A stretch of 64,000 bases of DNA, taken from Carcharhinus longimanus. Its lineage: Eukaryota. Positions 375-64,000 of this stretch are shown one piece after another; within the stretch, counting starts at the first letter, position 1; the number at the start of each line of letters is the position of its first letter. A program made the translations under genes and the position numbers. The notes below the pieces were generated by a model. That model was not told the DNA's origin. It was given only the letters and a program-made list of their open reading frames with translations, and made no database searches. The DNA lies in assembly GCA_030264375.1 (NCBI GenBank), contig JASCQW010000168.1, positions 10,989,500 to 11,053,499 on the forward strand, read 5' to 3'.

Positions 375-42182
<41,808 letters not shown>

Positions 42183-45100
42183 CTGAAACAGATACAAAAA
42201 TTGTCACTTATAACGTTCACCACAAACAGCTATCACCATACTCTCCCATCGCTGTGCAAAATGCTCACGACCAACTGCATTCACATTCACACAAAGGACG
42301 TGAATGATTTTAGGAAAACCTTCTGCCAACCACATGGTTCATTCCTGAATTGAGAATGAATAAACCGGCCTGTCTCTTGTTATGTTGGCCTCCAATCATT
42401 TTGAGTAATTGGACAGATATTAACTTTAAAATCCTAATTGCAATTATCTGACCCAGGTAACAAACCCACAACTTAAAATTGGTTTTAAAACAGAATTGGA
42501 AGCAGAGCTTGGAGGAGCACCTGATGTTGAGAACATTCAAAGTCAAGTATATTGCAAGTAAACAGTCATGAGGAAAAGTTGGGACAAAAAAGTGTGCAGA
42601 TTGAAATTTTGTAAAATAGATTGTCAATAGAAATCTCTCCCCCGAGCCTTCTGACCACTTTCCATCACTCACCAGTCTAAACTTTTCCATCTTACATTGA
42701 CATTAATGGTTGCTGACAAAAATAGGGAAGGAAGATGACAATCATTAAATTCTTCAGGAGTTACAAATATGTCCCCTGTTTTTGCATCACTTTTTTCACC
42801 AATCTTTCTGGAGGCAGACAAAAACAACTTGCATTTATGGGAAAAGCATTCCAAGGCGCTTCATCACAAACAAAAATAAAGATTTTATGATAAGTTACCA
42901 AAACTTGGTCAGGGAGATGAGTTTTAATGAGCATCTTAAAAAGGAGAGAAAGTAATATAGGGAAGGAATTTCTGGGGTTAGTTCCTTTGCCACTGAAGAC
43001 ACAGCTTCAATGAAAAGCATTATAGTGCAAGCGAATTGGGAAAGTGCAATGATCTCAGAGTTGTAGGGCTGAGGACATTACAAAAGCAAACAAGGCCAGC
43101 TACACATTATTAAATTGCTTTATTTTACAGACAAGTAAACACACGATTGTAATCAAACTCCATTTTGATCCAACTACAGAATCCTAAAAAAAATTGAAAG
43201 ACACCACAACAGTAGTTCATTTAACTTTTCCTGATTGTGATTAACTGATGATGCACCAGTCTTGCTCTGCATTAGTTGGAAATGGAAAGGCAGCCAGCCC
43301 CAGTGTCTCCAGCCCTGTTCTTGTTCAGTGATTTGTGAATAGGCTTGTCAACTGACTAACCTTCCCCTCTCCTCAGAAGATGTTCTCAGCAGACATATCA
43401 TGCTGGGTCACATGAATAGAATAGCCCCACCATAAGAGGCATGGATGTCTTTTGGCCATCAAAGACAAAATAATAAATTGCTTAATGTCGCCAGTTGTTG
43501 GAAAGCTTTAGAATCAACATGCTAAGTTAATATCCTGCACAGAGTTGGTGGCTTTTTAGGCCTATGAAATAGTGTTTTAAAAACACAATCTTGAAATATA
43601 ACTGAATCTTGAATCATTTCTGTGGGGAGAAAAAGGTCAAATTTGCCCAAGTAGTGGTAAGTGCATTTCCATAGGTTTAGAAAAATAATTTTCAAATTAA
43701 CAAATGTCTATATTTACACATCAAATCCATTTATTATCAAATAGCAAGATGATTCAAGTAGATTGTGCAGTTTGGAATCAAAGTCATTAACCTACTGTGC
43801 TTCACCAAGTGACTGGTTATTTTCACAACAGATGCAAATTTATTTATATAGTCTTGCACCTTGTGTCACATTTTAAAATGTCAGTATAATAAATGTGTCA
43901 ATAGTGCTATTAGGAGCACACTGATTAGAACGCACATGTTCACACACGCACACATGCAAAACAATTTTGTTTCAAAACAAAGATTCTGAATAATCCTTAA
44001 GTTCCTTTGAAGGTAGTCTTTGAGGTTCCTTAATTCCAATTTTGCCAATATAATCAATCTGAGGCTAATACTCAAGTTTTGGTAGATTCTTTCAAGTTTT
44101 TTCTCTTTAAGAAGAACACTTAATAGTTTTCAAAAGAATAGCACCATAAACATTTAAAGAACATAACAACAAACAGCTACTTGGTCTATTAAATCTACAC
44201 ATGCCAGGAAAAACGTATAATTTATCCAACATGGATTCTACCCTACTTAGCCAGCCTTCTAATAATTTCCTAACCCTATCTTTCTAAAGATGAATGAAGG
44301 GAAACTCTGGAATTCTGACAGATACCAACATCAATCTGATGCAGTTGTAGTCTGTTGCTTTACAAAAGTGACACAAACATGACTCCAGCAACTACCTGTA
44401 CGTCCTTCTATTCCAAACCCAAATAAAATAATGTTGTTCAACGACATGTTATCCAACCCCATCAAGCAGATATGATCTAAAACTAATCAGTCTGTTTAAA
44501 CAAAACCTTGCTGAAGGGAGTGTCCCTTCCTCACTTAGAGCTGTTAGTCTCAATCATCCTAATAGCCTTCTCTGAACTGTCTCCAACACATCTAACTCTT
44601 TTTGCAAACATGAAACCTGGAACACAATATTCCAAAGCAACTATTAAAAATTATAATCTGATTGGAAATCAAATACCCGCTAGAGGCAACCTAATAGTCT
44701 TTTAAAATTAAGTTTACGTTGAGTAATGCCAAAAGAGAAAGTGCTGGAAAATAGCAGGTCTGGGAGCATCTGTGAGGAGAACAAAGAGCTAACGTTTTGA
44801 GTCCAGATGACTATGCCAAATTACTTTCCATAAGCGCTTTTGTTGTGCATTCACAGACTTAATTATTAAAAAATATCTGATTTTCATTACGCTGTTTGCT
44901 TATTCTGAACATATCCTGCTGAATTCAGATACCTCTTATACTCACTACGTGTTAGAGTAATCAACAAATTTGCAATATTTTACAAGGATCAACCTCCTTC
45001 ACATCACCTACAAATTTGAGAGACTGGCAGGGAACCAAGTACACACACTTCAGCTGTTCTATCACTAAGACATGGAGCCTATTCCAAATTTAAATTTCAA

Positions 45101-46849
45101 ACATACTCTACACTCCAGCAGGATTTGGAGATGTTAATCTTCACAGATTAGTTTTGTGTGCTTACCTGCAGTGGTGGCAGTTTCGAATGCTATTTCCCAT
45201 TGCAATTTTCCCAAGAATGGTGATGGAAAAATTGAATTTTTTTTGAAAAGTTAGAAGGGAGAGGGTGTTGAAAAAATTGGGGAAAGATATCAAAGCACAT
45301 CCACACATCTAGTCTGAGTTTATATCAAAATTGAATCCTGTTGCATTCCCTTTGTAATCTGAAATCAATTTTGATTTAATTTATATTTAAAACAGTTACA
45401 ATATCAAAATCAACTCTGCAGTACAAGCTAGTGAGTTAAACAGCTTCTGTTTAAGATATCATCTGTGGATTGTGCCACCAAAGAAAACACTATTCAAAAG
45501 TAAAATTAAAGATTCCTGAATGCTTTTCTTTTCTGGAGCCATGAAGAGTAGAATCTCATCAAGTTATCGCTGCTCACACCAATCTCAAATGACATTTTTA
45601 AAAATGGCTGCTGTTTTAAATCGCGATACATCTGACTTTCCTATGCTGAGGATTTTTATAATCACTTGAGTAACTAAAATGAAATGTCCAGAAACTCTGA
45701 ATACCTCATGATTTGTCACAGGCATACATTCATGTTGATTGGATCATGAGAAATTCTTAGCATAAAGAATATATTCACATTTTTGACCATGATTTTGTAT
45801 TTTTCAAATCAACATTATTAAGCATATTTACACAGGAATTGATAAACACTTGAACATCTCCTTCAATAAGTAAACCACTAAAAATGTGCCAGACTGGATG
45901 TCTCTGATGCCCAACAGATTAGAACAAATATATTTATCAAAATAGAATTTGCCTATCTCTAGATCTTAATAACTAAAGGATTTATAATATTGAGCTTAAC
46001 ACTTAAGGCTTTTGTTCAATTTTAGAAGCATCAAACAGTATCTGCAAATTTATCTTGTTTCATGTTTCCGGTGAACTTTGAAATATATTTACCAGTTACT
46101 TCAATAGTGCACTATTCACTTGTTTTATCAACTGCACAACTCAACAAACTGTTTCATGCACAGAGGTTATTGCTGATCCTAGAAGTTACAAAATTATGCG
46201 AGAGGATCATTGATCTTCAAGAAGAAAACCAGATATTATCTTCTCACTTTGTTGTTGTCAATGAGAATTAACATCCAAACATGAAGTCAGATCTTTTACA
46301 AATGAGCATCTTACTTCACATTCAGACACTGTCAGTTTAGTACCTAATTCAGAATGTCCATGACTACTACTGTGTTGAGAGTTGAACGCTTAGAAAAATG
46401 AACGTTACCAAAATACAAGAATCTTCTCCATAGCAATTAGGTACACACAGCACGTGCTGGGCTTGCCAGCAATGCTCACATCCAATAAACAAATTTTTAA
46501 AATTTAAGTCAAGATGAGATTCAAACAACATCATGCCAGCGTCGCCAGTTTAAACCAAGCCACAAGTTTCAAATGACAGAGTAGATTGACAAATAATCAC
46601 TTGAGTAACTAAAATAAGTAGTTTCCAGAATTCCTAGTTTTCTTTGAACTCTCCAGGTTACACACTGAGGGTGCTGTTACCACCATCTACAACCGCAATT
46701 ATTCTGAATTTTTACCAGTTAGACAAATTGCAATGCCACTAGGTGGCATNNNNNNNNNNNNNNNNNNNNNCACTCTCTGCTATTTGACAGCCAACCCTCT
46801 ATCCACGCTAACACCCTACCCCCAACTCCATGCCCCCTTACCTTCTGCA

Positions 46850-47030
46850 ATCTCCCACAGTCCAAAGGTGTGCGAGTTAGGTGGATTGGCCACACCAAAT
46901 TGCCTCTTAGTGTCAGAGGGATTAGAAGGGTAAATATGTGGGGTTACGGGGATAGGGCCTGGGTGGGATTGTTATTGATGCATGCTTGATGAGCTGAATG
47001 CTCTCCCTGTTTGTTGTCGGTATTATGATC
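46850..47030 (+). mobile_element. HE1-type SINE 3' half
   Basis: ctcccacagtccaaaggtgtgcgagttaggtggattggccac..ggggttacggggatagggcctgggtgggatt. Confidence 0.75.
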
Positions 47031-49679
47031 TTGTTTCTCAAACCATTCTCTCAAGCTCTAAGGCATATTTCAGACAGTGGGCAGGGAGAAAAAGAGGAAA
47101 CGTGTAGCTCATCCCAGCGTTCCACTGTCTTAAAACCAAGCCAGCTCTGCCACTTTGATCTTAGTCACAGGCAGAATCAGACAATTGTCTCTCTTCACCA
47201 AAAGATTTGGAGTGGTTGAAAAAATAGGCATGCAGAGATCTTTGTTCAAAAGTAAAGTATTGACAAGATTGATAAAGTTAATTTGTTTCAGCATAACATG
47301 AGTCAATCTCTTCAAATTTCTGAAGGAGCCATTAACAAGGCACAGAATGAAACATTTATTTCCATCAACTGAACCAATTAATTCAAATCCAACACCATGT
47401 TAAAATGCAGAGACAGTTCCCAGAATGTTTCTTGTGTTTTTTTCTTATTACGCTGTCAAACCATTATTCAGAAAGTTGAACAGGTAACATGGCAAACAAG
47501 GGCTTTATTTCCATTTGTGCCCAGAGGCTTAAAGAAAAACAGCACATCAACAAGTGTGTTAAAATGCTGAACAAGCAACAATTCATGAGATGGTTGCAAA
47601 TTTGAAGTTTGGCACATTAAACAGAGTAACTGCGTCAAATTCATCGCAACAACATACTAGTTCTCTTGAAATAGGCATGTGTAAGAGAATAATTTTCATT
47701 CAGAAATATTAAGTTGCTGGTCCTCAAAACAAGATTTTTTTCTCCATACTGTTGATGGCTACCTGAAGTGCTATAATCCTGACATGCACAGGCTACAACC
47801 AAGGTTAAGGTGTTTCTGACACAATTTCCCAGTCAATTTCAAATTTCAATGGAGTGGTAGATTAATAATTTGTATAACACCTCTAATGCAGGCTCAAAAT
47901 CAGCTCAGGAATCTTTCCAGTATCTCCTCACTATTCCCCAAAGGGAAAAAAATGCCATCTGAAGATACACTAAAAAAAATGCTAATGCAGGTATACCACC
48001 AATGTTACAGAGTAAAATCAGATACCAAGAAGCATTCGGGCAGGAAATCAAAAGTGTGGCCAAAAAGATAGCTTTTAAAGGCAATTTCTAGACAAGAAAT
48101 ACCAGGCTAAAGATTCCTCCACTAATGGTACAGCAGCAGCAGAAATAGAGCTGCATGGAGGGAGGGGGGAGTCAGGGACATGCAGAATGGGGAAGTATTG
48201 TTCAAGTCAAGACAAAGATCTTGAATCGACGTGTTTTGTAATAAAATTAACAGATGTCTGCAAAATCAAGATAAACATGACAAAATGAAGAAAGTCGAAC
48301 TTGTATGCAGAGTTGATAACAGTGAGGAGATGTTACAAGACTAGAGGTAACATATGGGGAGGAGAAGAGTGAATAGCAAGTCATGTAGCACGAGGTGGAA
48401 ATAAGCTGGCTTGGTGACAGATAGGATGTGAAATCTGAGACAACTGACATCAAGGTTTTGCACTTTCTGATTCACCCTGAACGAGCAGCTGGAACAGAAA
48501 TGGAACAAGGGCTCAGGGTATGAGTTTAGAGTGCATTGGAAGAGAATACTGTCATCTGAAATGATCTGGTTAATAATCAGCTTCAACGTGACACGATCTT
48601 GTTCAAAGACGTAATCGTGAATGTTGGTCAGATTACATTGAGATTCAAAATAGAGAAATATCAGAGAAGAGGAGGTAAGGAGGTTCTGAGTGCAAACTGA
48701 AATAAGGATCAAGATTTGTTTGGTGCAATGATTAAAGGAAGAAACCCCAGTGGGAAAACATCTCCATGGGTTTGAGAAAGCCCCATAAATAACCAGTACC
48801 TAATAAAGGAGTCAAGATGGACGGAAGAGGGTGAAATGTTTAAACAGTGAATCAAAAACATGGGAGATAAGACCAGCAGCAGAAATGAGATGCAAAGCAA
48901 GTACACATAATTTTCTTATTTCCTCTCTTTATTGTTTTAAACAGTCTGAACTGTAGTTAAAATAATCAAAATAATTACTAACCTACAGCATAAAATTGTA
49001 CACAAACTGAACAAGTTTAGAAAAACACCAAGTCAAATAAAAAGGAGAAATGTTCTTTTCTTAAAAATGTGTGCAGGATTTTTAAAACCCATTTAATTTT
49101 AAATGAAACATTGATACGTGTGAGAAAAAGGAAAGAAGGAAAGACTGAATTGGTGGTATTTTAAACCTTAGAGGCTGTCCCAGAAGCACAGTGACTCTAA
49201 ACTCTTGCACAAGTATGGACCAAATTAACTGCAAATATCAGAGGTTTGCAGATCCTCTTACTAAAGGATGTACAACATGGAATGACTGAGACCATAAAGA
49301 CAAGACTACATTTTTAGAATAATTTATTCCTCACCACCTGTCAACATCAGTCATTGACTGTGACACCTTCAGTATAAGCTGGAAAAAAGGTTTACCACTC
49401 ATTTGTTCAGCACAGCTGCAAACCAGCACCATAAATTTAGCTCCATGCGCCTGCCAGAGAAGATTCTCCACTGAGGAAGCTAAGCATTGTAATGCCAAAC
49501 ACATTTGCCATCAATTTCCAGCACAGGCCAAATCCATGTCCTTTGCACTTCCTCCAAGAAAACCAAACTCAGTGAGTTTCAACTTACTGCACAATACTGT
49601 TTTTGATTTTGTACCCCCACGACACATATATACTCCTCACCCCATTACACAACACTCATCCCATGGAGCTACAAAAAAA

Positions 49680-50875
49680 AAGTTGGCAAATGGAATATAA
49701 TGTGGGAAAACATGAACTTGTCTACTTTAGCAGGAAGAATAGAAAAGAAGCATTTTATTTAACTGGCAAGAAATTACAGAACTCTGAGGCAGAGATGATG
49801 TCCCGGTACATGAATCATAAAAAGTTAGCATGGATGTACAGTTAGTGATTAGGAGGGCAAATGGAATGCAGGGGAATTTATTGCAGGGGAATAGAATATA
49901 AAAGTAGGGATGTTTTACCACAGTTGTACAGGGCATTGGTAAGAAAATCAACACAAGAATACAAGAAATAGGAGGAGTAAACCATATGAGCCATTGAGCC
50001 TGCCCCCCCCATCCACTACGATGATGGCTGATTTTAGGCTTCAACTCCAGTTCCTTGCCCATTCCCATATCTTTTGATTTTGAGACACCAAAAATCTGTC
50101 CATCTCGGTCTTAAAATGTAGACAATAATGGAGCTCAATAAAAATTCACATCTGAGTAATTTCTCCTCATCTCAGTCCTAACATGATAGTCTCAAGATAA
50201 GGAGTCTATACCTCCATGTTTCAGACTTCCCAATTGATGGAAACAATCTCTCTGCATCATCCCTATCAAGCGCCCCCCCCCACCCAAATTTTGTACATCT
50301 CAATGAGATCACTCCTCATTCTTTTGAACTCGAGAATACAAGCCCAAGTTTACTTAGCTTCTCATCATAGGACAGCTTCTCATCATAGGACTGTTCCCCC
50401 CAAATAAGAAAGTTGCCAATGTAATGAGGGTTTAATCAACTGACAGCAGAGATGAAGGGGTTATCTTATGATGAAATGTTGGGCAGGTTGTGTCTGTATC
50501 CATTAGGAGTTTAAAAGAATGAGAGGTGACTTTATTGAAACAAACAAGATCCTGAGGGTACTCAGCAGGGTGGATGCTGAAAGAATGTTTCCCCTTGTGG
50601 GAGAGATTAAAAACAAGAAGTCTCCCACTGAGATGCAAAGAAATGTTTCTCTGAGGGTCATGAGTATGTGGAGCACTTTTCCCTGGACAGAGTTGGAGCA
50701 GAATCATTGAATATTTTTAAGGCAGAGGTAGGTAGATCCTTCACTAATAAAAGAGTCAAATGTTATGTGGTGTAGGCAGTGTGGCATTGAAGCCACAATC
50801 AGATAAAACATGATCATATTGAATAGCTGAACAGGTTCGAGGGGCTGAATGGCCTACTCCTAATTTGTACGTTCA
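49680..50875 (+). mobile_element. CR1 LINE interrupted by an antisense CR1 3' end (~49950-50400)
   Basis: SWQMEYNVGKHELVYFSRKN and MRGDFIETNKILRVLSRVDAERMFPLVGE on plus; caagaatacaagaaataggaggagta tail on minus. Confidence 0.75.
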
Positions 50876-52944
50876 AATGAACACTTCTCTACATAATATT
50901 CCTCTGGATCAACACTCTACATAGTCAACTTTTCGCATTGTTTAAATTTACTGCAATTGGGTTTTTTTAAAAATTACATGCATTTAATTACTTGGTTGCA
51001 AAATTGTTGGTCTAGGTAGACAGAATTATAAAGCAAAACAGCAAAATTAAAAGAGAAAGGACAATAACCACAATGGAAAATCAGAGGAGCGAACACCCTT
51101 ACAGCAAAGTACAATAAGAACATGCAAAATACATTTGAGAGATATATATTTAGGAAGGTGGACTAAAATATCAATAATTCTGTTTCTNNNNNNNNNNNNN
51201 NNNNNNNNNNNNNNNNNNNNNNNNNNNNNNNNNNNNNNNNNNNNNNNNNNNNNNNNNNNNNNNNNNNNNNNNNNNNNNNNNNNNNNNGTGGACTAAAATA
51301 TCAATAATTCTGTTTCTACTTTGAAGACAAACTTGTAATCAATGTCATTTCACTTTGGGACATTGCATGGGAATTGTTGGCTCCATGATGTACATTATTG
51401 GCTCCATGGTTTGCAATGTGCCATGAAAATGGGAAATCTACCAAGTTAAGGAGAGTGATAATTCAGAGGAATGAATGCAGAGATACTGTCATTTACACCA
51501 CAGCAAGGGAGCCAATAATGAGACATGAAATTTATGTATATGCTGGAACCAAAGGGCTTCCTCAATTAATGTAATGCAAAGTGGCTTCTGACGTGTTTCA
51601 TGTCCAGGGTTGATAACGACGTGCATTCTACGGGATAACTGCTGTGAGCTAGGTGATGAACTTCAAAAGCTGGAAGATTCCACCATTCTGTTTTAATAAA
51701 AGCCATGCCTCGATGTAAACAAAAAAAAAGGAATTCCTATTGACTGTTCATCAAATCAACTATGAAGCTTAAACATTAAGACAAGGAATTAATTTTATCA
51801 TAGTTAAAATGGCAAAATATTAGTAGATTTTAATATCTATATTTGAAAGATATTATGCATATAAGGAACATACCGGAAAAAGACAGAAGTAAATCATATG
51901 GCAATCGAGCCAACTCAGCCATTCGGTACAATCATGGCTAACCCTGGGTTTCCATTCTATTTCCACCCCCTACTTCCCATATCTCTTAATTTTCTCTGAC
52001 ACTAAAATCTGTCCATCCAAGCCTCAAAATATATTCAACTACGGAGCATTCACAACGGGATAGTGATTTTCAAACATTCACAATCTTTTGAGCAAAGGTT
52101 CACCCTGCATTTGCAAATTTAAATTGCCATGAGAGTGTTGACTTTTAACATAAACAGACGTAGAAATAATGGAAGAGCTTCAATCTTAAAACCAACCTTG
52201 CTTTAACTTGCATCATCATCGAATCAGAAACAAAGATCTGATATATTGTTCAAGCAATGATTCATTTCACATTTATGTTAAGTGAGAATCTGGCCCTCCA
52301 GTTCACCAAATGTGTGTTTAAAAATACCAAATCAATATGAACTCATGGAATTCGCTTCTTCAGGGTATTGCTAAAAATTCTCTTGCTTCCTTCAGTTTAT
52401 CTTGAGGCAGAACAAATTTCTCATTATATAGAAAGTGTTCTGAACACAAAAATAGGTGGGGGGGGAAAGCATTTGCATTTATGTAGCACCCTAAATATCC
52501 CCAGAGCATTGCAGGGTACTTCAGACAATTTATTGCTTTTGAAGTTTGGCCACTGTATTGGTACTTATGAAGCAACATTAAGAAAGGGTCTAAGGCAAAC
52601 TTAATTCCCCCCGTGAGCCATGTAAAGTTATGATTAATAGCAAATGGTGCAATGTTTCCATAACAGCCTGCCATCTGATGTCAAATTGAGTAAACTAGTA
52701 AAACAGTTGATCAGAAAGAAAACTACATTTGTGTATTAGCCAGAGACTACTTTTTGTAAGCTCTTCTAATGTTTTCAGTAAACCGACAGTGGTGTGCAGC
52801 ATAAAAACATGAAATCACCACACATCTAAAGTAATTTTAATCACAATGCTCAAGCAGTTCTAAAGCCACTTTGCAACACACATCATTCAACGGTCATGAC
52901 AGTGACCTCTACCTAGAGCAGGCAACCACTGCATAGACCAAGAT

Positions 52945-53300
52945 AATAACAACTTGCATTTATACCGTGTTAGAAGCACTCTATAATGTCCAAGGCAATG
53001 TAAAGGAGCATTAACAGACAAACTTTTACACCACATAAAGGAGATATTAGGTCAGGTGAACAAAAGGTAGGCTCTAAGGAAGATCAAGAAGTAGAGAATG
53101 AGAACTTGGGGAATGAATTCCAGAGCTTCAGTCCAGAGGAGTTGAAGATAATGTTGGCAATTTTGGGTGGTTCAAATCAGGCATGCAAAAGAAGGTAGAA
53201 TTGGAGGAGAGTGATCTTGGGTTGTAGGGCTGCAGGAATTTACAGAAAAGAGGGACAAGATCCTGGAGGAATATGAATAAAAGAATTAAAAATGCAAAAA
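52945..53300 (-). mobile_element. L2-type LINE 3' end, old (similar pieces near 42823, 52470, 58140)
   Basis: aacaacttgcatttata tail followed by ggagatattagg..gaattccagagctt. Confidence 0.55.
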
Positions 53301-54164
53301 ATGGCAATGATGAAAAAGGACTTTAGGAAAGAGTGGGGCAATGGGAGTCTTGGATTACTCTAGCAAAGCGCTTGCCACTTCACAATTCCCAATCTGAGAT
53401 TCTACCAGATATGTCAATGCAGCAGACTTCAGACACTACCTGCCAATTCAAATGATTCTTTGAGGGCAGTGAGTTGCATGTGAATGATCTCACCATGGCC
53501 TGAATTTTAAAGGAGATACTCTGGAAACTTCTGCTTTATTTTAAATTTATTCCCTTCAGCTCATCGCCAGGTCTTATATGAAGCTATTTATTTCTCGTCT
53601 CACGATCCCCCTCATTGCCATGCTGGTGAGCGGCACAGATGCTTCTATTGAAGAATTTACTTTTCTATGTCCTGTGATATGTTAGAGGGATTAATCTATC
53701 CTTCCTCAAAAGCTTGCAAGCTGATTAATTACTATGGGTAGGACAATAGATAGCCCTAACCAAATAATGCTAAAAGACTCATGTTTTGCCCATGCACTTA
53801 GTGCTGCAAAAAGTACAACCATATGGGTCAAAAATAACATTCAGCTATTTGTTTAATTACATATAATCAAATCCAATCTACTATGGGAAGGCACATNNNN
53901 NNNNNNNNNNNNNNNNNNNNNNNNNNNNNNNNNNNNNNNNNNNNNNNNNNNNNNNNNNNNNNNNNNNNNNNNNNNNNNNNNNNNNNNNNNNNNNNNTGAC
54001 TAATGGAAAGCTTGTATAAGATTGAACATCAAGCTTAGTTCTACTCATATTCAACTTCTTCAAAAGTTCATGTATGGCTATGAAGAAAATTCCTATTGTG
54101 CATTCCTTGATGCAATGGACTTAAAAGATGTAAACTTCAGATGATGTCTCCAATAACAAAGACA

Positions 54165-55060
54165 TGGGGGCATGATCTTGAGCCCATACTCACCGCCCAC
54201 AGGATTAGTGATAGGGGCTCAAGATACAGTGAAACTCAGCAATTGTGAATCTCGCCAGTGAGATCGCAATTTCTGATTTTCACCTCCACTTGCCAGCAAT
54301 GTAATGAGATTCACACCCATGATGGGCAAGAACCTGATTTACATCCACTGAAATAAATATTAGACAACATCACTAGATCTTCCCCCTTCACTTAAGTTTT
54401 GTGAAGGTGAGTATAGCCCCCAAGGAATGGGACATGGCTAGGCAATGCCCAGGACAGATTGGTGTTAATCTGTGTTGGGGACAGCACTGGGATACACCCT
54501 AGTAGGACCTTCATGAGGTTGGGGGAGGCGGAGGTGGTGGTGTTAGCATGTATGTGTGTTGGGAAAGGAAAGTGTATTCAATGAAGGAGGGAGCAAATGC
54601 CAGAGATGGCTGTGAAGTGATACTGCCGCTGCTGGGGNNNNNNNNNNNNNNNNNNNNNNNNNNNNNNNNNNNNNNNNNNNNNNNNNNNNNNNNNNNNNNN
54701 NNNNNNNNNNNNNNNNNNNNNNNNNNNNNNNNNNNNNACTGCCGCTGCTGGGGGTGGGGTAAGAGATGCCAGTGTTGATGGGACGGTATGAAGAGATGAG
54801 ATGCTGGCATTGACTTTTGGTGGGGTGGGGTGGGGGGGGTGTGTGAAGAAGGAAGAGAGAAGAGGAGATGTCAGTGTTGATGTGGGTGAGGGATGCCAAT
54901 GTTCTTGGGGTGGGGGAGAGCCCTTGAAATCTATATGGTGGAGGGGAGATCATTTAGTCATTTCTTGGTCTAATTAAAAACGCACCCTGATTTCTGTGCA
55001 GCCGGCTTTACCAGCGTGTTTGGGTCCCACCCACAAAAAGTGAGGGTGTGAAACATGTTT
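54165..55060. mobile_element. GC-rich non-autonomous DNA-transposon-like element, gapped
   Basis: Start resembles 35492; G-rich interior. Confidence 0.4.
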
Positions 55061-56989
55061 CCTGCATTTTATTTTGATAATCCCACAAGAAAGCACAGCC
55101 AAAACTGGCATGTTTATGTCAGGAATACATTGTAGCTCTACCTCACTATTTAATAAATAGCTAGGGGGAAAAGTTACCAGGAAATGTCAGTGAAAATGTA
55201 TCACAATATTCACTTCCTTGTAAACTGTTTACTCCACTCCAAACATTCAGCTTTTTGGCTTCATTTTCACTGAATCCACAGTAGTGCAAACACATACCAA
55301 GTATACACAGTGAATGTGACACAAATCACTGAGTTTTTCTTTTGGTAGCTCATCGCCATTCCCAACAATCAGCATCATCATACCTGCAAATTCCAACTCT
55401 AACTACCAATGCTTCCCATTATTTACAATGTTATCAACATGAATTCTACACTTCTAACATATCAAATGAAACCAGTACTTTGACAGTTAAATGTAGTGAT
55501 GAAGTAAGACAAAGTGCAAGGATATTTTTCCTAAAGACTACATGAAAAGAACCGCATAAATATTCTAGCACTATTGCCAAGTAACTTGTATTTCCATTAA
55601 CTGTACGGCCTCCCTGTTGCAGTAATTTATAATACATTATTTGTACTTAAAAGGAATTTTGGTCATGAACAATGAGATAATCAGATGGCAACAATCCCAG
55701 TTTAAAATGCAGTCCAAATCTTCCAATTTAGCATCGTTTAGATGTTCTAGTCACAGCTCAACATTTTGACACAAAATTAGAAATCGAAGTACATTTTCAA
55801 ATAAATGTGTGTTCTTCTTTTCCTTCTTGTCCTTTCCCTCAAGTGCCAACAAGATTGCAGTAGCCAATTACAATGCCACTTTGGAATATTCAGTTATGCA
55901 AACATTACTACATAGACTAGTTTCATTTACCAATTGTATGAAAATCTCATTTTCACAAAGTATCCACAACAAAAATGTTAGATAAAAGAATCCTGCTTAT
56001 ACTTCAAGCAATCTTTTAACATTTCCGATCTCCAACATTTTCATTCACCCCCTAGCTACACCCACCCCCCCACCCCCACAAAAACGATCATTCTTCTTTA
56101 CACCATTAGAGTTCCAAAAATGCACTTCATTCCTGCATTTCTGCCATATCTTTAAAGCTTGGTTTCAATCTGTAAAGCATTTCTGTTTTCACATCCATCA
56201 ACTTAGGAGTTATCCCCTCATAAACAAAGGGAGCTCACAAAGCATATTTCAGACACATGTTCCAATACAAGGTCCAACACAGCAACTAGAAATGGATTAG
56301 CACCTACAGTTCCTCACACAGGCAGTTGTCATTTCAATCACACCACGATAGAGAATAGGGAAAGGAAACTCAGGGCTAGCAAATGCTAAATGCCCTTTTC
56401 TTATCTGCCAAGAATTTGTTCATAAAGTAGTGGGGGAGCCTCTCCTCTCCACATAGGAATGTGCTAATTTCAGTGCTACTACCTAATATGCAATAAAGAC
56501 AATATGCAAATTTTACCACTTAATTCATTACCTCTCAAACACATCCAGCAATATTTTTTTTCAAAAATGGAAATTCTTCACACATTTTCAAATGCCTCCT
56601 CAAAGACATCTCTTGGATCTCACCTTCCTTAATTGGTCCTCCAATCACTTCCAGATGTTTTAAACCCTCAGTAACCTCGGTGAGAAAACTTGGGAACATT
56701 TGCTGCGCTTGAGTCATCATACAAGTCCAAATGTGAGCAAAGCAACGGAATATTTTCAATTGAAGAGGTGAGCAGTTCACAATCAAGCTTTGGAAAAATA
56801 TCTTTTAACCATTGCTGCTCAGTACTCAGAAGGCCAACATACCAATAACACGATGACTGCCCAAATAGTATCGTTGTATACAATAATTTAGTCATGCCCT
56901 ACCATTTCAAGATAGAATTAACCAATCCGTTGGTCTTGTTGTTATTTCTAAAAAAAGTACATCTGATGATATCCATGTGGTCCTGGTTT

Positions 56990-57350
56990 CATGCTGAACC
57001 TCATCTGCTGAAGAAGCTCTCAACAATGCCTTTTGTTACCTGGACACTTGACTATCCCTACATACACTTGGCTGGATTCTCATCTCCCACCCTCCATAAA
57101 CTGGAGCTTATCCATAACTCCACTGTTTGCATTCTAATGTACATTTGGTCCCAGATAGCCATGAACCTTGTACCTGCTGGCTTACATTGGCTCCCAGTTC
57201 TGCAATGACTAGATTTTAAAATTCTTCTCCTTGTTCTCAAATCCTTCCACCTCTGTGTGCCTCCTAACTTATAACCCATACCCTCTTTGATATCTACGCT
57301 TTTGCAATTCTCTTGTTCTTTCACTTCTTGGACATTCTTTAAAATCTATC
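56990..57350 (+). mobile_element. L2 LINE ORF2 C-terminal fragment
   Basis: TLHKLELIHNSTVCIL..LHWLPVLQ*LDFKILLLVLKS (LHWLP motif). Confidence 0.8.
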
Positions 57351-58599
57351 TCTGAACGATCTACCCTTTTATCCCCTTAAGTGGCTTAATGAAGCAGTTC
57401 ACATGGGAAATAATAATAATAGACTTTTTTTTTTAAACAGTACACAATTTAAATTTTAACTTTACTTGGTTCACTGGAAAAACTTTTAATTGTGTACTCA
57501 AATGACAGTGGTGAAAATTGATCTCAAAAACTACATTAACAGTGAAAACAGCTCACTTTCTACTGATCAACCTAACTACATAAAGATGGCTCAATACTTG
57601 ACACACATTACTAAACAGCCCGAGACGTACATAAATAGATTCTTCATTAGTCTGAGCAAACTGCCTGCACAAGAAAAGCCTTTCAGGCACACCATACTAA
57701 TAGGATTGGGGTATCCCTCATCTGGTTCCTATTTCCTACTCTACTTTCATCTACAATCAATCATTTTCAATCAAAATTAGGTGTTAAATATTTTTGACCT
57801 TGAAATAAAAGCATTATGTGCAAACTGATCAGTTAGCAACATTTACGACCACTAATTCATTTTCAGCTTTTGTATGCTCATGGTTCCAACCCAATACTGC
57901 ATGGCTGAAAGCTAAATACACTCAAGATTATGAAAACACACACCAACAAGGAAGAAGTTTATTTGCTTAAAAATAAATGTTAACAAAATAGATCACAAAT
58001 ATTTTCAGAGGCGATAGTTGTATCTAAATAAACAAATAAAGTTAGAAATTTTCTGTAGAAGCTAATCTTGCCCACACAGATAGAAATAAATTCAGGGTCA
58101 CAGTACCAAGACTTGGTGATACTATCAGTTAAATTGACAAATGTTCCTGAGTCATGATGCAAGGACCTGACAGGAACAATTGTCAAACAAAATGTGACCC
58201 TAAGCCACATGAAGAAACACTCTGATATGCAGAGTGACTAAAACTTGGACAGAGCAGTGGATTGGAAGAGGTAAAATAGAGGTGGAAATGGTTAAGGAGA
58301 GAATTCCAAAGCTTTGAGCCAAAGCGGTTGAGTGCCTGTTTGCCACCAATTCAAAAGACTGGCAGAACTCTGCTCTCGAGCAAAAGGGAAGAGGAGCTCT
58401 TTCTTCCAATATACAACAGAATAATTTAATCGCACTTGTCTGTATATATCCTCCTGGACACTTTTAAACCTCTTAGCATTGCAACTTTACCACCATTTCT
58501 TGCATTGAAATGTCAGATAGATTTCAAGGAAGTTGCTTTTATACGTGATGCAGCTCATCTTCTAAATAGCTTTCATGTCATGTTACCAGCTTTCCATGA

Positions 58600-58887
58600 C
58601 TTCCATAAAAAACATACAATGCAAAAGGAAGCCATTCAGCCCATCGAGCCTGCACCGACAACAATCCTAAGTATTTACCTTGCTAATTCCCCTGACACTA
58701 AGGGACAATTTATCATGGCCAAACCATCTAACCGGCACATCTTTGGACAGCGGGAGGAAACTGGAGCACCCAGAGGAAACCCTGGAAGAACATGACACGA
58801 GGAAACTATCCACACACAGTCACCCAAGGCCAGAATTGAACCCAGATCCCTGGCGTTGTCAGGCAGTACTACTAACAACTGTGCCAC
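58600..58887 (-). mobile_element. HE1-type SINE
   Basis: Reverse complement of the HE1 body: gggaggaaactggagcacccagaggaaacc..ccacacacagtcacccaaggccagaattgaaccc. Confidence 0.8.
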
Positions 58888-58929
58888 TCCAAGAGTTGTG
58901 ATATCAGCTGTCGGAGCTTTCGTGACATC

Positions 58930-59545
58930 ACTTCTGCTGATGTCTCCCGGAATATGTCCAGCCATAGCATGAGTTATGTGCGAACTTGGAGCAAGTTAAT
59001 GCACTAACTACCCTCGTACTTCTTGGTGCTGCCAAGGAAGACTTGTTGAACGGTACAACATATCCTGTAGTTAATACTGATTGTACCAAAATTATGGCGC
59101 TGGTGGGGAGGATTACATTGGGTGAATTAGGTGGAATGCTTTGTTCTGCAGTGTCAAACTTCTTGAGTATTGCTGCAACTGAATCCATCCAGAGAAGTGT
59201 GGAATATTTCATCCCAACTGTCTTCTGCTTTGTAAATGCCAGAGAAATTTCAGCTAATCAGGAGGTGAGACACTCAAAGAATATCCAGTCCCCGATCTCC
59301 TCTAACAGCCACAGCAATTATGTGGCAGGTGAGTGATGCCCTCCAAGGTGGAGGACTTATTGATGGTAGCGCCATTGAAAAGCAATGGGAGATGATTAGG
59401 TTTTTGTTTGTTGGAAATGGTCATGGAATAACACAGATGTCATTTGCCACATTAGCCCAGGCCAGGATATCGTGCAGGTCTTGTTGCATGCGAACACTGA
59501 TTGCTTCATCATCTGAGGAATTTCAAATACAGCTCAGTATTTGTT
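58930..59545 (-). mobile_element. CR1-clade LINE fragments (second family)
   Basis: KYSTLLWMDSVAAILKKFDT resembles MEYSPLAWMSAAPTTLKKLD; same family at 63040-63840 (+). Confidence 0.55.
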
Positions 59546-59847
59546 AAATACACATCCTCTAACCAATAGCTAGAGCTCCAGTGTTATGAATTCAAAACTT
59601 TACTCAATTAAAAAGTCAGTCTATTTTTACCCAAATTTCTCAATTTACAAATGACACAAAATACCAGTCAGAAGGAATGGTCAAATAAAGCAGGACTTCT
59701 GCAATCTTTTCAGTGCCAGTGAGGACTGCATCTGTGTATCTCTGACAGCAACTTCCAGATTTAGCTGCATTGACTTAACCCCAGAAGTTGCTTTCAGGTG
59801 TTTTACATCAATGAAAGGTAAATAGCCTCACCATTACTCTCTCATCA

Positions 59848-60015
59848 TTTGCTTCTCGGCCTTTTGGCTAAGATCAAGTGTCAGATCAAGCCTAAGGTGG
59901 GATGCAATGCCTAATCTTTTTAGCTTGGATCTTTTTTGTCTTTCTTGTGGAGACCATGAATTGGATTCAACTGGAATTTGATTTTGGGTTTTTGAGCAAG
60001 CAAGGAATGGATTTG
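59848..60015 (+). ncRNA. U2 snRNA-derived sequence (pseudogene or U2-headed SINE)
   Basis: 59851-59881 gcttctcggccttttggctaagatcaagtgt is identical to U2 nt 4-34; diverged similarity continues through stem IIa/IIb and an Sm-like tgggtttttgagca. Confidence 0.85.
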
Positions 60016-60289
60016 AGTCCTATGATAAAAGCAAATTCCTGCGGATGCTGGAATCTGAGACAAAAATAAATCCCGAGTCAATATAATAGAAACCTATAGG
60101 TGGGCTGTCTGAAAGTGAAATACCATTCAAAACAACCATGTGCTCCACCTTTTGAGCAAAGCAATTGTCTGAGGATACCATGTATTATGCTACACCACTA
60201 TTCCAGGCTCAGGAAGGACACAGGAAACCAGGCTGTGAGATAAGTAGGCACTATCAACTACAGCACAACCAGAACATATTTTTAACGCT

Positions 60290-60540
60290 AAACAAATTCC
60301 TCTAACTCGTGTGCCTCTGACGCTAATTTTCAAACTCTCTGTCCACAGGAGAGGTGCCAGAGGACAGCTAATGTGGTAATTATTCAGGAAAAAAAAGTAG
60401 TGATAAACCTGTTAATAAGTAAGTCTAGTGTCAATGTTTGGAAAATTACTTGAAAAATTCTGAGGGATAGAATTAATCTCCATTTGGAGAGGCAAGATTT
60501 AGTCAAGGATAGTCAGCATGGCTTTATCAGGGGGCGTTAA
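60290..60540 (+). mobile_element. CR1 RT N-terminal fragment
   Basis: ggagaggtgccagaggacagctaatgtg (GEVPED..ANV); agtcagcatggcttt (SQHGF). Confidence 0.7.
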
Positions 60541-61115
60541 TACATTTGTGTTGTATTTGCTTTTAATGACATCCTCAAATTTTAATCTTTTGAACACTGG
60601 TATTATTTTGGTCAGTCCATGCTGATGCTTCACCTTCCTGACATGTGGTGCCAAAAAATTGAATGCATTACTTCAGTTAGGGTGAGGAAAGCTTTGTACA
60701 ACTGAAGCCTTTCTCCCCTTTGTATTCCAGCTCCCTTGCAATGTTCAATAATCCAAGGCCTAATTGATTACTTTGAGTATTTCTATACTCTCTTGCACAA
60801 CTTATTTTCTTCTTCCTCAATTCTTCATTTTACCTTTACACAAATGCTTTGTTTTGACTTTCTTGGACCCAAAGTGGGTGACCTTGCACTTCTCCATTGA
60901 ACTCCATCTGCCATTGTCTTAACCACTTGTATTATACCTGTGTCCCTTTGTAACTTCCAGCTCTCAGCTATATAACTTATTGTGCTCATAGCTTAGTTGC
61001 ATATCCAAGTTTACAAATTACTCTGTATTTCCTCATCCAAGTTATTGATCCTTATGACAAAAAGTGACACGTCAGCGCACATCCTCGGAGGACATTCCCT
61101 GTCATTTATTTCTCA

Positions 61116-61349
61116 GTAAGAAGCCTCACAATACCACGTTGAAGTCTCAACGGGTTTGTTTGGTGGCGGGGGGCCACTGGCTTTCGGGGTGCTGCTCCTT
61201 CATCAGGTGACTCACCTGGTGCAGGAGCGACGCTTCGGGGGCTGGTGGCTTTTGCTACCAAATAGACCTGTCAGACTTTGGCCTGGTATTATGAGATTTC
61301 TTACTGTGTTTACCCCCGTCCAATGCCAGCATCTCCACATCATGGCTAC
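61116..61349 (+). mobile_element. Palindromic Penelope-derived element with 13-bp TSD, hammerhead motifs and A-to-G hypermutation
   Basis: TSD catttatttctca at 61103-61115 and 61350-61362; ~95-bp arms around 61211; minus strand reads cacCTGATGAaggagcagcacccCGAAAgc. Confidence 0.88.
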
Positions 61350-61843
61350 CATTTATTTCTCAACCAATTATCAACATGTTGAGGTCTTCTCCAATTCTGT
61401 CTTTTTGCTAATATCTTGTGTAGGTGTTGAATGATTTCTGGATGTGCAAACTAGGAGCTGGAGTAGGACATTCAGCCCTTTTGAGCCTGCTCCCACATTT
61501 AATAAGATTATGACTGATGTGATTGTGCCCTCAACTCCACATTCCAACCTACCCCAGATAGACAACATTGACAGACCCTCCTTCATCTGCTCCATCAGTG
61601 AGCTTCCCAACTATTCAGCTTAATTAGTTAGATATGAATTGCCCTTGTATCCATGTTTCATCTTTAATCAAACTTGACAAAGCCCTCACCCACTAATTGT
61701 AAATTGTATTAACTTCTCCACAAATGATGTCAAAATCATGGATCTCCTTTTTTCCCCTCGCCTTTAATGTCTTGGAATGGAAATCATTTGATCCTGCAGA
61801 TTTGTCGACGTTAGGTCCCATTATTTTCTTTACTCTTTCTTTC

Positions 61844-62130
61844 ATTGCTCTCAGTGCCAGGGACCCAGGTTCAATTCCTGGCCTGGGTCACTGTCTATGT
61901 GGAGTTTGTACATGCTCCCCATGTCTGCGAGGGTTTCCTCTGGGTGCTCCAGTTTCCTCCCACAATCCAAGATGTGTGGGTTAGGTGCATTGGTGGTGCT
62001 AAATTGCCCTTAACATTAGAGGGACCAGCAGAGTAAATGCATGGGGTTATGAGGATAGGGCCTGGGTGGGATTGTGGTCAGTGCAGACTTGATGGGTTGA
62101 ATGGCCTTCTGCACTGTAGGATTCTATGAT
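61844..62130 (+). mobile_element. HE1-type SINE
   Basis: gccagggacccaggttcaattcctggcctgggtcactgtctatgtggagtttg..gcactgtaggattctatgat. Confidence 0.8.
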
Positions 62131-62479
62131 ACTCCTAAATAAAATATATTCCTCTTTGGCTGTGTGTATGTTGTCTTGCACTGATGTTTTGTTCTCTCCT
62201 TTTACTGTGAGGATAAATACAAATTAGTCATTTAAGAAGCCTGTAATTTCCTTTTTTTTTAATTATCTTCTCATCCTGCTTTTGCATTTAATGGACTTAG
62301 GTTGCTCCTCACCAATCTTCGTCAATGTATCTATTCAATTTGATATCCCTTGCAAGTGTTTTTTTAGTGTAGCATTTTTCTATATTTCTTGCCTGTTTTA
62401 AATCTACGTACAAAACAACTTTGTTGCTTTAGTAACCAGTTATTATTGGAAAGTGCTTAGTTTCACCCTTGCTGCCTGG

Positions 62480-62780
62480 CGGAAATTGAGAGCTCTGACA
62501 AGATTATCTTGTTGAGTGATATTTGAGAGATAGGTATTGGTGAGGACGCCAAGCAAACACCTGGTCTTTGAAATAGTGGCATGGATTGTATTGCCATCTG
62601 CTTACCAGGACAGGTTTAATGTCTCATCTGCAAGATGGTATCTCTGACAATGTAGCCCCTATCAGTGCAGCACTGGAGTCTTCACTCAGACTATATTTTG
62701 TGCTTTGGTATCTGGAGCAGTTGTTGAATCCACAACCTTCTGCTTAAGAGCTGAGAATTAGAACACTGAATTGAGGTTAG
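62480..62780 (-). mobile_element. DeuSINE (SacSINE1/AmnSINE-like) remnant
   Basis: Minus strand: gcagaaggttgtggattcaa (tRNA B box)..ctccagtgctgcactg..gatgagacattaaacc..ccatgccactatttcaaag (Deu-domain-like). Confidence 0.6.
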
Positions 62781-63039
62781 ATATTTCATATGATGGTCAC
62801 TCGACGCAAGATGTTCCCTTACAGCTGGTTTGTTAATCAATTTTGGTTCCATACTCATCAAATCTAGTGTGACCATCCTCCTTGTCAATGCTAAAATGTA
62901 TTGTGCCCAAAAACAGTCCTAAATATATTTGAGATTTGGTTCCTTTAGCATTGGAGCTGTTTTGCTTCTCCCAGTCTGTTATCTAGGATCATAAACATGC
63001 CCTTATAATGAAACAGTCTGTGCATGCATACAATAAGAT

Positions 63040-64000
63040 CAGGGTAATATTCAGGCTTAGAATGATAAGTGATGAGTAACAGATAACATTGATGCCATAC
63101 TATCACCAGTCTGATGACCACCAGTAGTGTTACTGTGACTGAATCTTAATGATCAAGTTCCTGGGGTCATCACGGCCAGAAGCTTAACTGGATCAGCCGT
63201 ACGTATACTGTGAATTAAGAGCAGATCAGGGGTTTGGAATTTTGCAGTGAATAACTTGCTTTCTGACTTGGCAAAGCGTGTCCACCATCTAAAGGGCACA
63301 AGTTAGGAGTATGATATGATGCTGTCTACTTGTCTTGCTAAGTGAAATTCCTATTTACAAATGGATGATATTCTGCTGCAAAGCCATCAACAATTCAATT
63401 GCGACAGCTCTTATAACAGAGATTGCATTTGTTTGTGAATAAGTATGAGCAAATTCAGAGTGCTGCTGTCATTGTGAAATTTAACCTGATATTTTCCAAC
63501 TTGCCCAGATGAATCCAACTTCAAGAAGATATGAAGCTCGACGCAGTCCAAGGCAAAACAGCCTGCTTGATTGGCACTCATCCACTACCCTAAACATTAA
63601 TTTCCTCCACTGCAAATGCATCATAGCAGCAGTGTGTACCATCTGCGATACATTGCAGCAACTCGCCAAGGCTCCTTTGACAGCACCTTCCAAATCCATC
63701 TCTAATGCTTAGAAGGACAATCTACAGTTTCCCCCAAATCACATTCCGTCATACTTGGCGATGTATTGCTTTTCCTTCTGTGGTGGGTCACTGCCTCTAG
63801 TAGGAACTCATTAATAGCACTGTAGGTGTACCTAAACCACAGGGGAGGCAGTAGCATTGTGGTATTTTTCTGGAGTAGTGACTGAGACCTAGAGTAATAA
63901 TCTGGGGACCCATGTTCGGATTCCACCACACCAGATGGTGAAATTTGAATTAAAAAATGTCTAATGACCATGAAATTATTGTCAATTGTTGTAAAAGCAC
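63040..64000 (+). mobile_element. CR1-clade LINE fragments followed by a tRNA-SINE head (~63845-64000)
   Basis: tgtccaccatctaaagggcacaagttaggagtatgat; cagcctgcttgattggcac; gtggtatt..gtaataatctggggacccatgttcggattccaccacaccagatggtgaaatttgaatt. Confidence 0.6.

Follow-up and report, generated by a model that had tools for sequence, protein, structure and literature searches.

How does an inherited retroelement copy come to carry a dense cluster of A-to-G changes on one strand only? RNA editing is normally not inherited. The preliminary description of the locus studied here proposed that the RNA of a hairpin element had been hyper-edited by ADAR, reverse transcribed and inserted into the germline. 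We examined the element in a window of 64,000 nucleotides (the whole stretch of DNA analyzed, from a genome of 2.68 Gb) and compared it with its relatives in the same genome.

A hairpin element in the first intron of vinculin

The focal feature (61116–61349) comprises a hairpin and a 43-nt tail and is flanked by perfect 13-bp direct repeats. The palindrome and target-site duplication (TSD) were found as described: the 13-mer is exact, and the arms 61114–61210 and 61212–61306 fold as one hairpin (z = -10.6). The features are as follows.

61103..61115, no strand: left TSD copy, 13 bp; perfect 13-mer, single at the empty site in organism F
61114..61210, minus: left arm, an inverted pseudo-LTR end without tail; 10 A-to-G changes on the plus strand, at 61141, 61152, 61158, 61165, 61169–61172, 61179 and 61188
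61176..61209, minus: putative minimal hammerhead motif; CUGAUGA and GAAA intact, predicted cleavage-site U lost via the change at 61179
61212..61306, plus: right arm, a sense pseudo-LTR end; 9 A-to-G changes, at 61219, 61229, 61238–61240, 61244, 61265, 61280 and 61281
61213..61247, plus: putative minimal hammerhead motif; core (61216–61222, 61237–61240) and predicted cleavage base (61244) altered
61307..61349, plus: unpaired Penelope-type tail; A-to-G at 0 of 8 scored A
61350..61362, no strand: right TSD copy, 13 bp; perfect 13-mer, A residues intact
42183..64000, minus: host context, vinculin intron 1, gene transcribed on the minus strand; exon 2 at 42114–42182
375..42182, minus: vinculin gene within the window; exon 1 at G000:C168:11101622-11101813, about 48 kb past the window end
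29449..29563, plus: sister copy, short palindrome with tail; not hyper-edited
41752..41970, minus: sister copy in opposite orientation; not hyper-edited

Vinculin exon 1 was located by a family search. The segment 42114–42182 we take to be vinculin exon 2 from its translation. The first intron of about 70 kb houses the focal element and at least one further fragment of a family copy. Two other sequences were noticed in the same part of the window. On the plus strand, 59848–59935 matches the 5' part of U2 snRNA (Rfam E 0.0009, below the gathering score) and is likely a truncated retrocopy. A piece of 287 bp, bounded by gaps and placed on a different contig (L283:1479-1765), is 97% identical to window positions 60538–60819 and is likely a misplaced haplotype fragment.

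The A-to-G changes of the focal copy

As reference we used the column majority of 29 sister copies. Against this majority the focal copy has G at 19 of 57 A on the plus strand, 10 in the left arm and 9 in the right, which makes exact the earlier hand count of about 19, whereas only 2 of 59 T are changed to C (Fisher p 2e-5). The remaining differences (4 C-to-T, 4 G-to-A, 3 transversions and 2 one-base insertions) leave the 13 substitutions other than A-to-G at the level of the sisters. In the sisters A-to-G occurs at 58 of 1615 sites (3.6%) with at most 4 per copy, and T-to-C at 47 of 1697, so that the excess in the focal copy is pronounced (binomial p 6e-14) and the G alleles are not the state of a subfamily. 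A T or A precedes 13 of the 19 edited sites, in line with the two thirds estimated before. The statement that each new G faces a T in the fold holds for 18 of them; the remaining one is displaced by an extra G within a G run.

Contigs of three other runs from two studies (X2, X5 (organism B) and X6) show 0–3 differences from the edited interior and carry the G alleles; at the G run at 61168, X6 has five G and the reference six. Run X1 contributed no interior piece among the matches listed. The insertion is present in runs X7 and X8, of which X8 covers the G-rich bin 61150–61169 at single-copy depth and X7 does not. It is present in organism C, where this bin has no matching contig, and the contigs of run X10 stop short of the insertion site. 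The empty site, taken as ancestral, was found in the related organism F, where record 9 of run X17 joins 61102 directly to 61350 with one target copy. The edited interior in several runs together with the empty site in X17 indicates that the changes are real and inherited and predate the split of some of the sampled organisms. The one-strand cluster of the focal copy is thereby confirmed.

An error of assembly or sequencing, or a G-rich subfamily or ancestral state, could be suspected here: hairpins and G runs are error-prone, the reference is one G longer than X6 at 61168, and two of the 19 sites are common variants in the sisters (8/29 and 5/29), which were themselves chosen by likeness to the focal copy. 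Against this stand the G alleles in the contigs of the independent runs, sets of edited sites that differ between loci, and new Gs that oppose T in the partner arm, which is not expected for a palindrome of a subfamily. We give such an origin practically no weight.

A family of Penelope-like elements

The focal copy is, by its predicted anatomy, a palindromic non-coding end-fragment of a Penelope-like retrotransposon, with an inverted pseudo-LTR, a hammerhead motif, a tail and a TSD. It had been taken for a stand-alone hairpin element, a view we abandoned as longer family members carry reverse transcriptase (RT) and GIY-YIG sequences with the same pseudo-LTR and tail. In these members the RT thumb is followed by a Cys linker, a GIY-YIG domain and then the shared pseudo-LTR, hammerhead and tail; in L270 thumb, linker, endonuclease, pseudo-LTR and tail are contiguous. 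The domain matches lie below the curated cut-offs, with Pfam E 0.005 for GIY-YIG and E 0.0015 for RVT_1 in a frame of L268 with RT motifs, which was reached via the family's thumb fragment. The putative CxxxxCxxC linker fits the criterion for Neptune/Nematis given in the available text of PMC8557442. Core motifs suggestive of a hammerhead are present in the pseudo-LTR, with the candidate cleavage-site U followed by U, A or C in 19 of 20 arms with an exact core; an Rfam scan of the window gave no hammerhead match.

Penelope-like elements are characterized in the available parts of PMC8557442 and PMC6155905 by an inverted copy and a tail, and both the 30–40 nt tail and the inverted 5' copy are present here, along with RT and C-terminal GIY-YIG in the longer members. 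The accounts of such elements in the text available from PMC11167929, PMC8557442 and PMC6155905 contain neither the editing marks nor a re-mobilization of palindromic copies in either polarity. Like retrozymes (PMC6155905, in part), the focal copy is a non-autonomous retroelement with hammerhead motifs. Unlike retrozymes, which have direct repeats and circular RNAs according to the same text, it has a single inverted pair and is part of a Penelope-like family. We therefore rejected an identity as a retrozyme: the terminal repeat is inverted, not direct, and RT and endonuclease are encoded by the family itself.

We found 177 arms in 1.19 Mb, targeted and distant arms included, which would place the family very roughly in the order of 10^5 copies. 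Among 43 palindromes the centers differ, with 41 distinct readable strings and 2 in gaps. Since the centers differ, most palindromes likely form anew at insertion. Reverse transcription of a Penelope-like element has been reported to begin internally, at two sites bounding the tail, with both target strands extended, and hammerhead cleavage to be dispensable for insertion in vitro (PMC11167929, available portion). Two side observations concern the family. Three insertions with differing centers (L023, L057, L060) share one target site within a LINE fragment, which suggests that certain target sequences are favored. In the tails of L053, L058, L074, L081, L085, L099 and others, an A versus G difference in a run of three A on the antisense strand splits subfamilies; it may stem from an edited source copy or from an ordinary subfamily change.

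Copies with A-to-G clusters elsewhere in the genome

The preliminary description had suggested looking for a subpopulation of copies with clustered A-to-G changes confined to the paired arms and depleted at 5' G. We searched the genome with six sequence patterns, each forcing 2–3 G, and obtained 92 matches at 80 places after dropping 12 duplicates. Arms with at least 12 other differences were excluded before counting, as were 11 flagged arms at least 27% diverged, which were taken as a distant subfamily or misalignment. A place passed if p < 1e-3 remained after removal of pattern-forced G and of 5'-C sites. Such a subpopulation was found: 22 of the 80 places passed, and one further locus was met untargeted among about 107 arms of the close family; discovery being pattern-based, these counts are not frequencies. 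The weak candidates L074, L077, L079, L098 and L114 failed once forced and 5'-C sites were removed. Neighboring copies show no mild A-to-G excess on the same strand (70/2060 vs 76/2070 in 105 arms).

Pooled over the edited arms, A-to-G affects 413 of 1016 A, compared with 33 of 1078 on the opposite strand; A-to-T (19) and A-to-C (9) are rare. For context counts L044 was omitted as kin of L042. The rate depends on the 5' neighbor in the order T (111/189, 0.59), A (129/263, 0.49), C (81/286, 0.28) and G (47/200, 0.23; G vs A/T p 1e-12), where the rate for C is depressed by CpG decay and by the selection rule. TAG is the triplet most often changed (20/27), and GAC is changed in 2 of 54 cases. Unedited arms lack the 5' order (T 13/612, G 19/615). 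ADARs favor 5' U and A over C and G (PMC11276115, in its available part). The loci thus share with ADAR editing the one-strand A-to-G type, the confinement to double-stranded parts and the preference for 5' U/A with avoidance of G; a 3'-G preference is absent overall in the edited arms (104/255 vs 264/683, p 0.55). The unpaired tails are spared, with A-to-G at 5 of 69 sites in nine sense loci and 1 of 24 in five antisense loci.

Both arms pass at 11 loci, and in all 11 the two arms are edited on one genomic strand, with no mirrored change. The substrate was therefore one strand holding both arms. Editing of a single-arm RNA before palindrome formation is disfavored, as mirrored changes would be expected and none were found. 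By element strand, the 23 loci divide into 14 sense-edited, 6 antisense-edited and 3 tail-to-tail composites; three of the 6 antisense-edited loci carry a TSD and a normal tail end. In L039, L083 and L097 a single edited arm has no partner within its own 3-kb locus. One composite occurs on two contigs with differing outer flanks (L042:987-1853 and L044:986-1860), which suggests that an edited copy or RNA was copied again.

The idea of ADAR-type hyper-editing of hairpin RNA, reverse transcribed into the germline, withstood the comparisons with subfamilies, T-to-C changes and independent runs. Its narrower form, in which the edited RNA is always the element's own sense RNA, does not hold, given the 6 of 23 loci that are antisense-edited and two loci with unedited host-flanked paralogs. 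Exons that match double-stranded-RNA-binding domains of ADAR1 (L245:9262-9441, L246:4623-4907, plus strand; PDB E 2e-19) lie about 29 kb downstream of the hyper-edited L100 on the same strand, which is probably a coincidence.

Unedited paralogs and the strand of the host gene

We examined 18 regions around edited loci, and in two of them found an unedited paralog that shares both the insertion and the flanking host DNA; 16 have no local paralog. At C112 (54.895–54.899 Mb) a pair of oppositely oriented hairpins, separated by 3.3 kb, has all its edits on one strand (23/46 and 27/48 A). Between the hairpins the spacer is unedited (A-to-G 38/722, G-to-A 42) as compared with 50/94 in the arms, and their tails show 1/10 and 1/6. 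The edited segment of 3.8 kb lies within a gene, which we take to be papilin-like, and both hairpins are edited on the strand of this gene. The paralog (84–85%) carries both insertions at the same sites, with A. Just upstream of the edited segment, at G000:C112:54888438-54893928, lies another direct duplication (83%, 1.3 kb, 4.1 kb apart), and low-complexity repeat arrays bound the region. At C98 (1.07–1.10 Mb) an edited arm and 1.07 kb of host DNA (L056) repeat, in inverted orientation and with 89.7% identity, a site 13 kb away; in the arm at that site, the 4 comparable edited sites all read A. The edited segment is flanked by a direct repeat of about 110 bp. Both unedited paralogs abut assembly gaps, that of C112 being a 3.86-kb piece with a gap on either side, so that where they lie and how far they extend is provisional. 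Paralogs that share insertion and flanks yet lack the edits imply that part of the editing postdates insertion and passed through a molecule with host sequence in it. These edits likely arose through host RNA copied back to DNA.

A gene could be called in 10 of the 18 regions, 8 giving no call from 20–70 exon candidates each. The edits lie on the strand of the host gene in 5 of these regions and on the other strand in 5, where several calls use one-sided exons only, those around L038 and L070 are confined to 40 kb, and a base-skew strand proxy was left out of the tally. We therefore rejected the idea that all edits follow the host-gene strand. For antisense-edited copies a gene could be called in three cases, and in all three the edits lie on the strand of the host gene as found at the source. 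Names of host genes beyond the Pfam labels are presumptive assignments. One antisense-edited copy (L032:985-1070, 1197-1571) lies about 130 nt past exon 1 of a DNA-glycosylase gene with H2TH domain, presumably NEIL3, on the strand of the gene; a search for a parent of its junction (28 nt, up to 3 mismatches), weak at such divergence, matched only the junction itself.

Proposed routes from edited RNA to germline DNA

We infer two routes from ADAR-edited RNA to DNA. In Route A a transcribed palindromic copy would be edited and re-inserted elsewhere by a Penelope-like protein. In Route B host transcripts bearing hairpins would be copied back near their source, as a duplication or a replacement. 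That an ADAR-edited RNA served as template for the focal copy, by either route, we hold to be very probable. Re-insertion of the edited hairpin RNA at a new germline site is the route we favor for this copy, as a probable though by no means secure reading. An older palindromic copy elsewhere would have been transcribed, its RNA would have folded into a duplex of about 95 bp, and ADAR would have deaminated a third of the A. A Penelope-like protein would then have nicked the target and primed at the tail, with RT reading inosine as G. The other target strand might have been primed at a second start site on the cDNA, a guess built on the available text of PMC11167929, and this would yield the exact ends and the TSD. 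Internal priming at two tail-bounding sites with both target strands, as set out there, is compatible with re-insertion.

Re-insertion is likeliest for the focal copy because the edits are on the plus strand while vinculin is transcribed from the minus strand, and because the adjoining flank is single-copy, with no long paralog found for it. Route A also draws support from the single edited arms without partner (L039, L083, L097) and from the missing tie to the host strand. Against it, no source copy was identified for the focal locus, the hairpin center is of a common type, and exact ends without carried-over flank demand the conjectured second priming step. Route B is needed for at least two other loci, given their unedited paralogs, and as these two were edited after insertion, the focal locus could have been written in place as well: an unedited insertion whose later transcript was hyper-edited, reverse transcribed and used to replace or duplicate local DNA. 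Such a history accounts for exact ends, intact TSDs and antisense-edited copies, and it is what the C112 pair with its unedited spacer, the inverted copy at L056 and the host-strand agreement of the three antisense cases point to. At the focal locus, the transcript would have to be antisense to vinculin, with the host gene on the other strand; host-strand concordance overall is even, 16 of 18 regions have no local paralog, and both paralogs abut assembly gaps. We regard in-place writing of the focal copy as a minority reading, perhaps one case in four.

Two explanations dispense with an edited RNA template. ADAR might have deaminated the DNA strand of an RNA:DNA hybrid, in an RT intermediate or an R-loop, with no later copying of RNA. 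In principle, an insertion that proceeds by two nicks could leave both arms marked on one strand, and in vitro the editing of dA in hybrids by ADARs is reported for A-C mismatches and mutant enzymes (PMC12925331, available part). A tail-primed hybrid, however, would expose the tail, and the tails of the antisense class are spared; hairpins 3.3 kb apart are co-edited across an unedited spacer, and a conversion of about 40% at A:T pairs far exceeds the reported activity, which makes hybrid deamination improbable. Still less probable is error-prone DNA synthesis of the Pol eta/iota type, in which a T of the template at a WA motif is paired with G, or misincorporation by RT as it copies through the hairpin. 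The 5' A/T preference and the strand coordination match the WA signature of Pol eta/iota-type synthesis, hairpins stall polymerases, and the overall lack of a 3'-G preference suits such an origin. Yet A-to-T and A-to-C stay near background (19 and 9 of 1016) at an A-to-G rate of 41%, and tails and the 3-kb spacer on the same strand are spared; by this confinement of the edits error-prone synthesis is largely refuted.

Returning to the ADAR-edited RNA template, a wider reading of the loci is that host RNA, still unspliced, serves as template for germline DNA at the locus it came from or close by, with ADAR marks as tracer, that kilobase tracts of introns are duplicated or replaced from edited RNA, and that Penelope-like hairpins of either polarity are themselves mobile units. 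We would put this at an even chance.

The edits had also been thought to damage both hammerhead cores and to hint at host restriction. The core on the plus strand is destroyed; on the minus strand CUGAUGA and GAAA are kept and only the cleavage-site U is lost. Restriction finds no support, as the edited copies integrated, the composite L042/L044 stands at two sites, and cleavage is dispensable in vitro according to the available text of PMC11167929. It is neither shown nor needed by the data.

Relation to known editing fossils

Editing fossils in retroelements are already known, and the ADAR-type Penelope-like set, judged on genomic sequence, apparently adds to them. APOBEC G-to-A fossils have been described in LTR elements, with other cluster types called negligible, in a screen whose scope was LTR elements and DNA transposons and whose supplements may list A-to-G clusters (Knisbacher and Levanon, PMC4866542, in part). 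Like those elements, the loci presented here are clustered, of one type, strand-coordinated, germline-fixed and a small share of copies; unlike them, they show A-to-G and not G-to-A, in paired arms only and on either element strand. A survey of trace archives reported ADAR clusters in RNA-derived traces (PMC2873906, available part). The ADAR-hypermutated avian retroviruses (Felder 1994; Hajjar and Linial 1995, both as cited in the available part of PMC12925331) resemble our loci in that about half of the A in an inverted-repeat region became G and were fixed by reverse transcription. The avian cases are exogenous viruses in culture, whereas the changes here are inherited, common to several organisms, non-viral and sometimes host-flanked. 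Steele and Lindley propose a model in which host RNA edited by ADAR templates DNA at the locus from which it was transcribed (PMC11817618, available text). That model uses somatic strand-bias statistics, whereas we find discrete germline tracts with unedited paralogs; unlike its expectation, the focal copy is not edited on the host strand. In a search of mostly open-access literature, main texts excluding supplements, we met no report of germline-fixed ADAR hyper-edited Penelope-like copies, nor of host tracts that are edited while a paralog is not.

The loci have the appearance of heritable, datable traces of ADAR at work in germ cells, and they parallel, for A-to-I changes, the retroelements edited by APOBEC. 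Since the mark can be laid only on single-stranded hairpins, it labels DNA that has passed through RNA. It thereby makes two questions testable in genomes already sequenced: whether a host transcript can serve as template for DNA at its own locus, and how the inverted ends of Penelope-like elements are formed and re-used. If true, the reading that edited RNA is written back would provide direct, datable genomic evidence for the transfer of RNA edits to DNA in a vertebrate germline.
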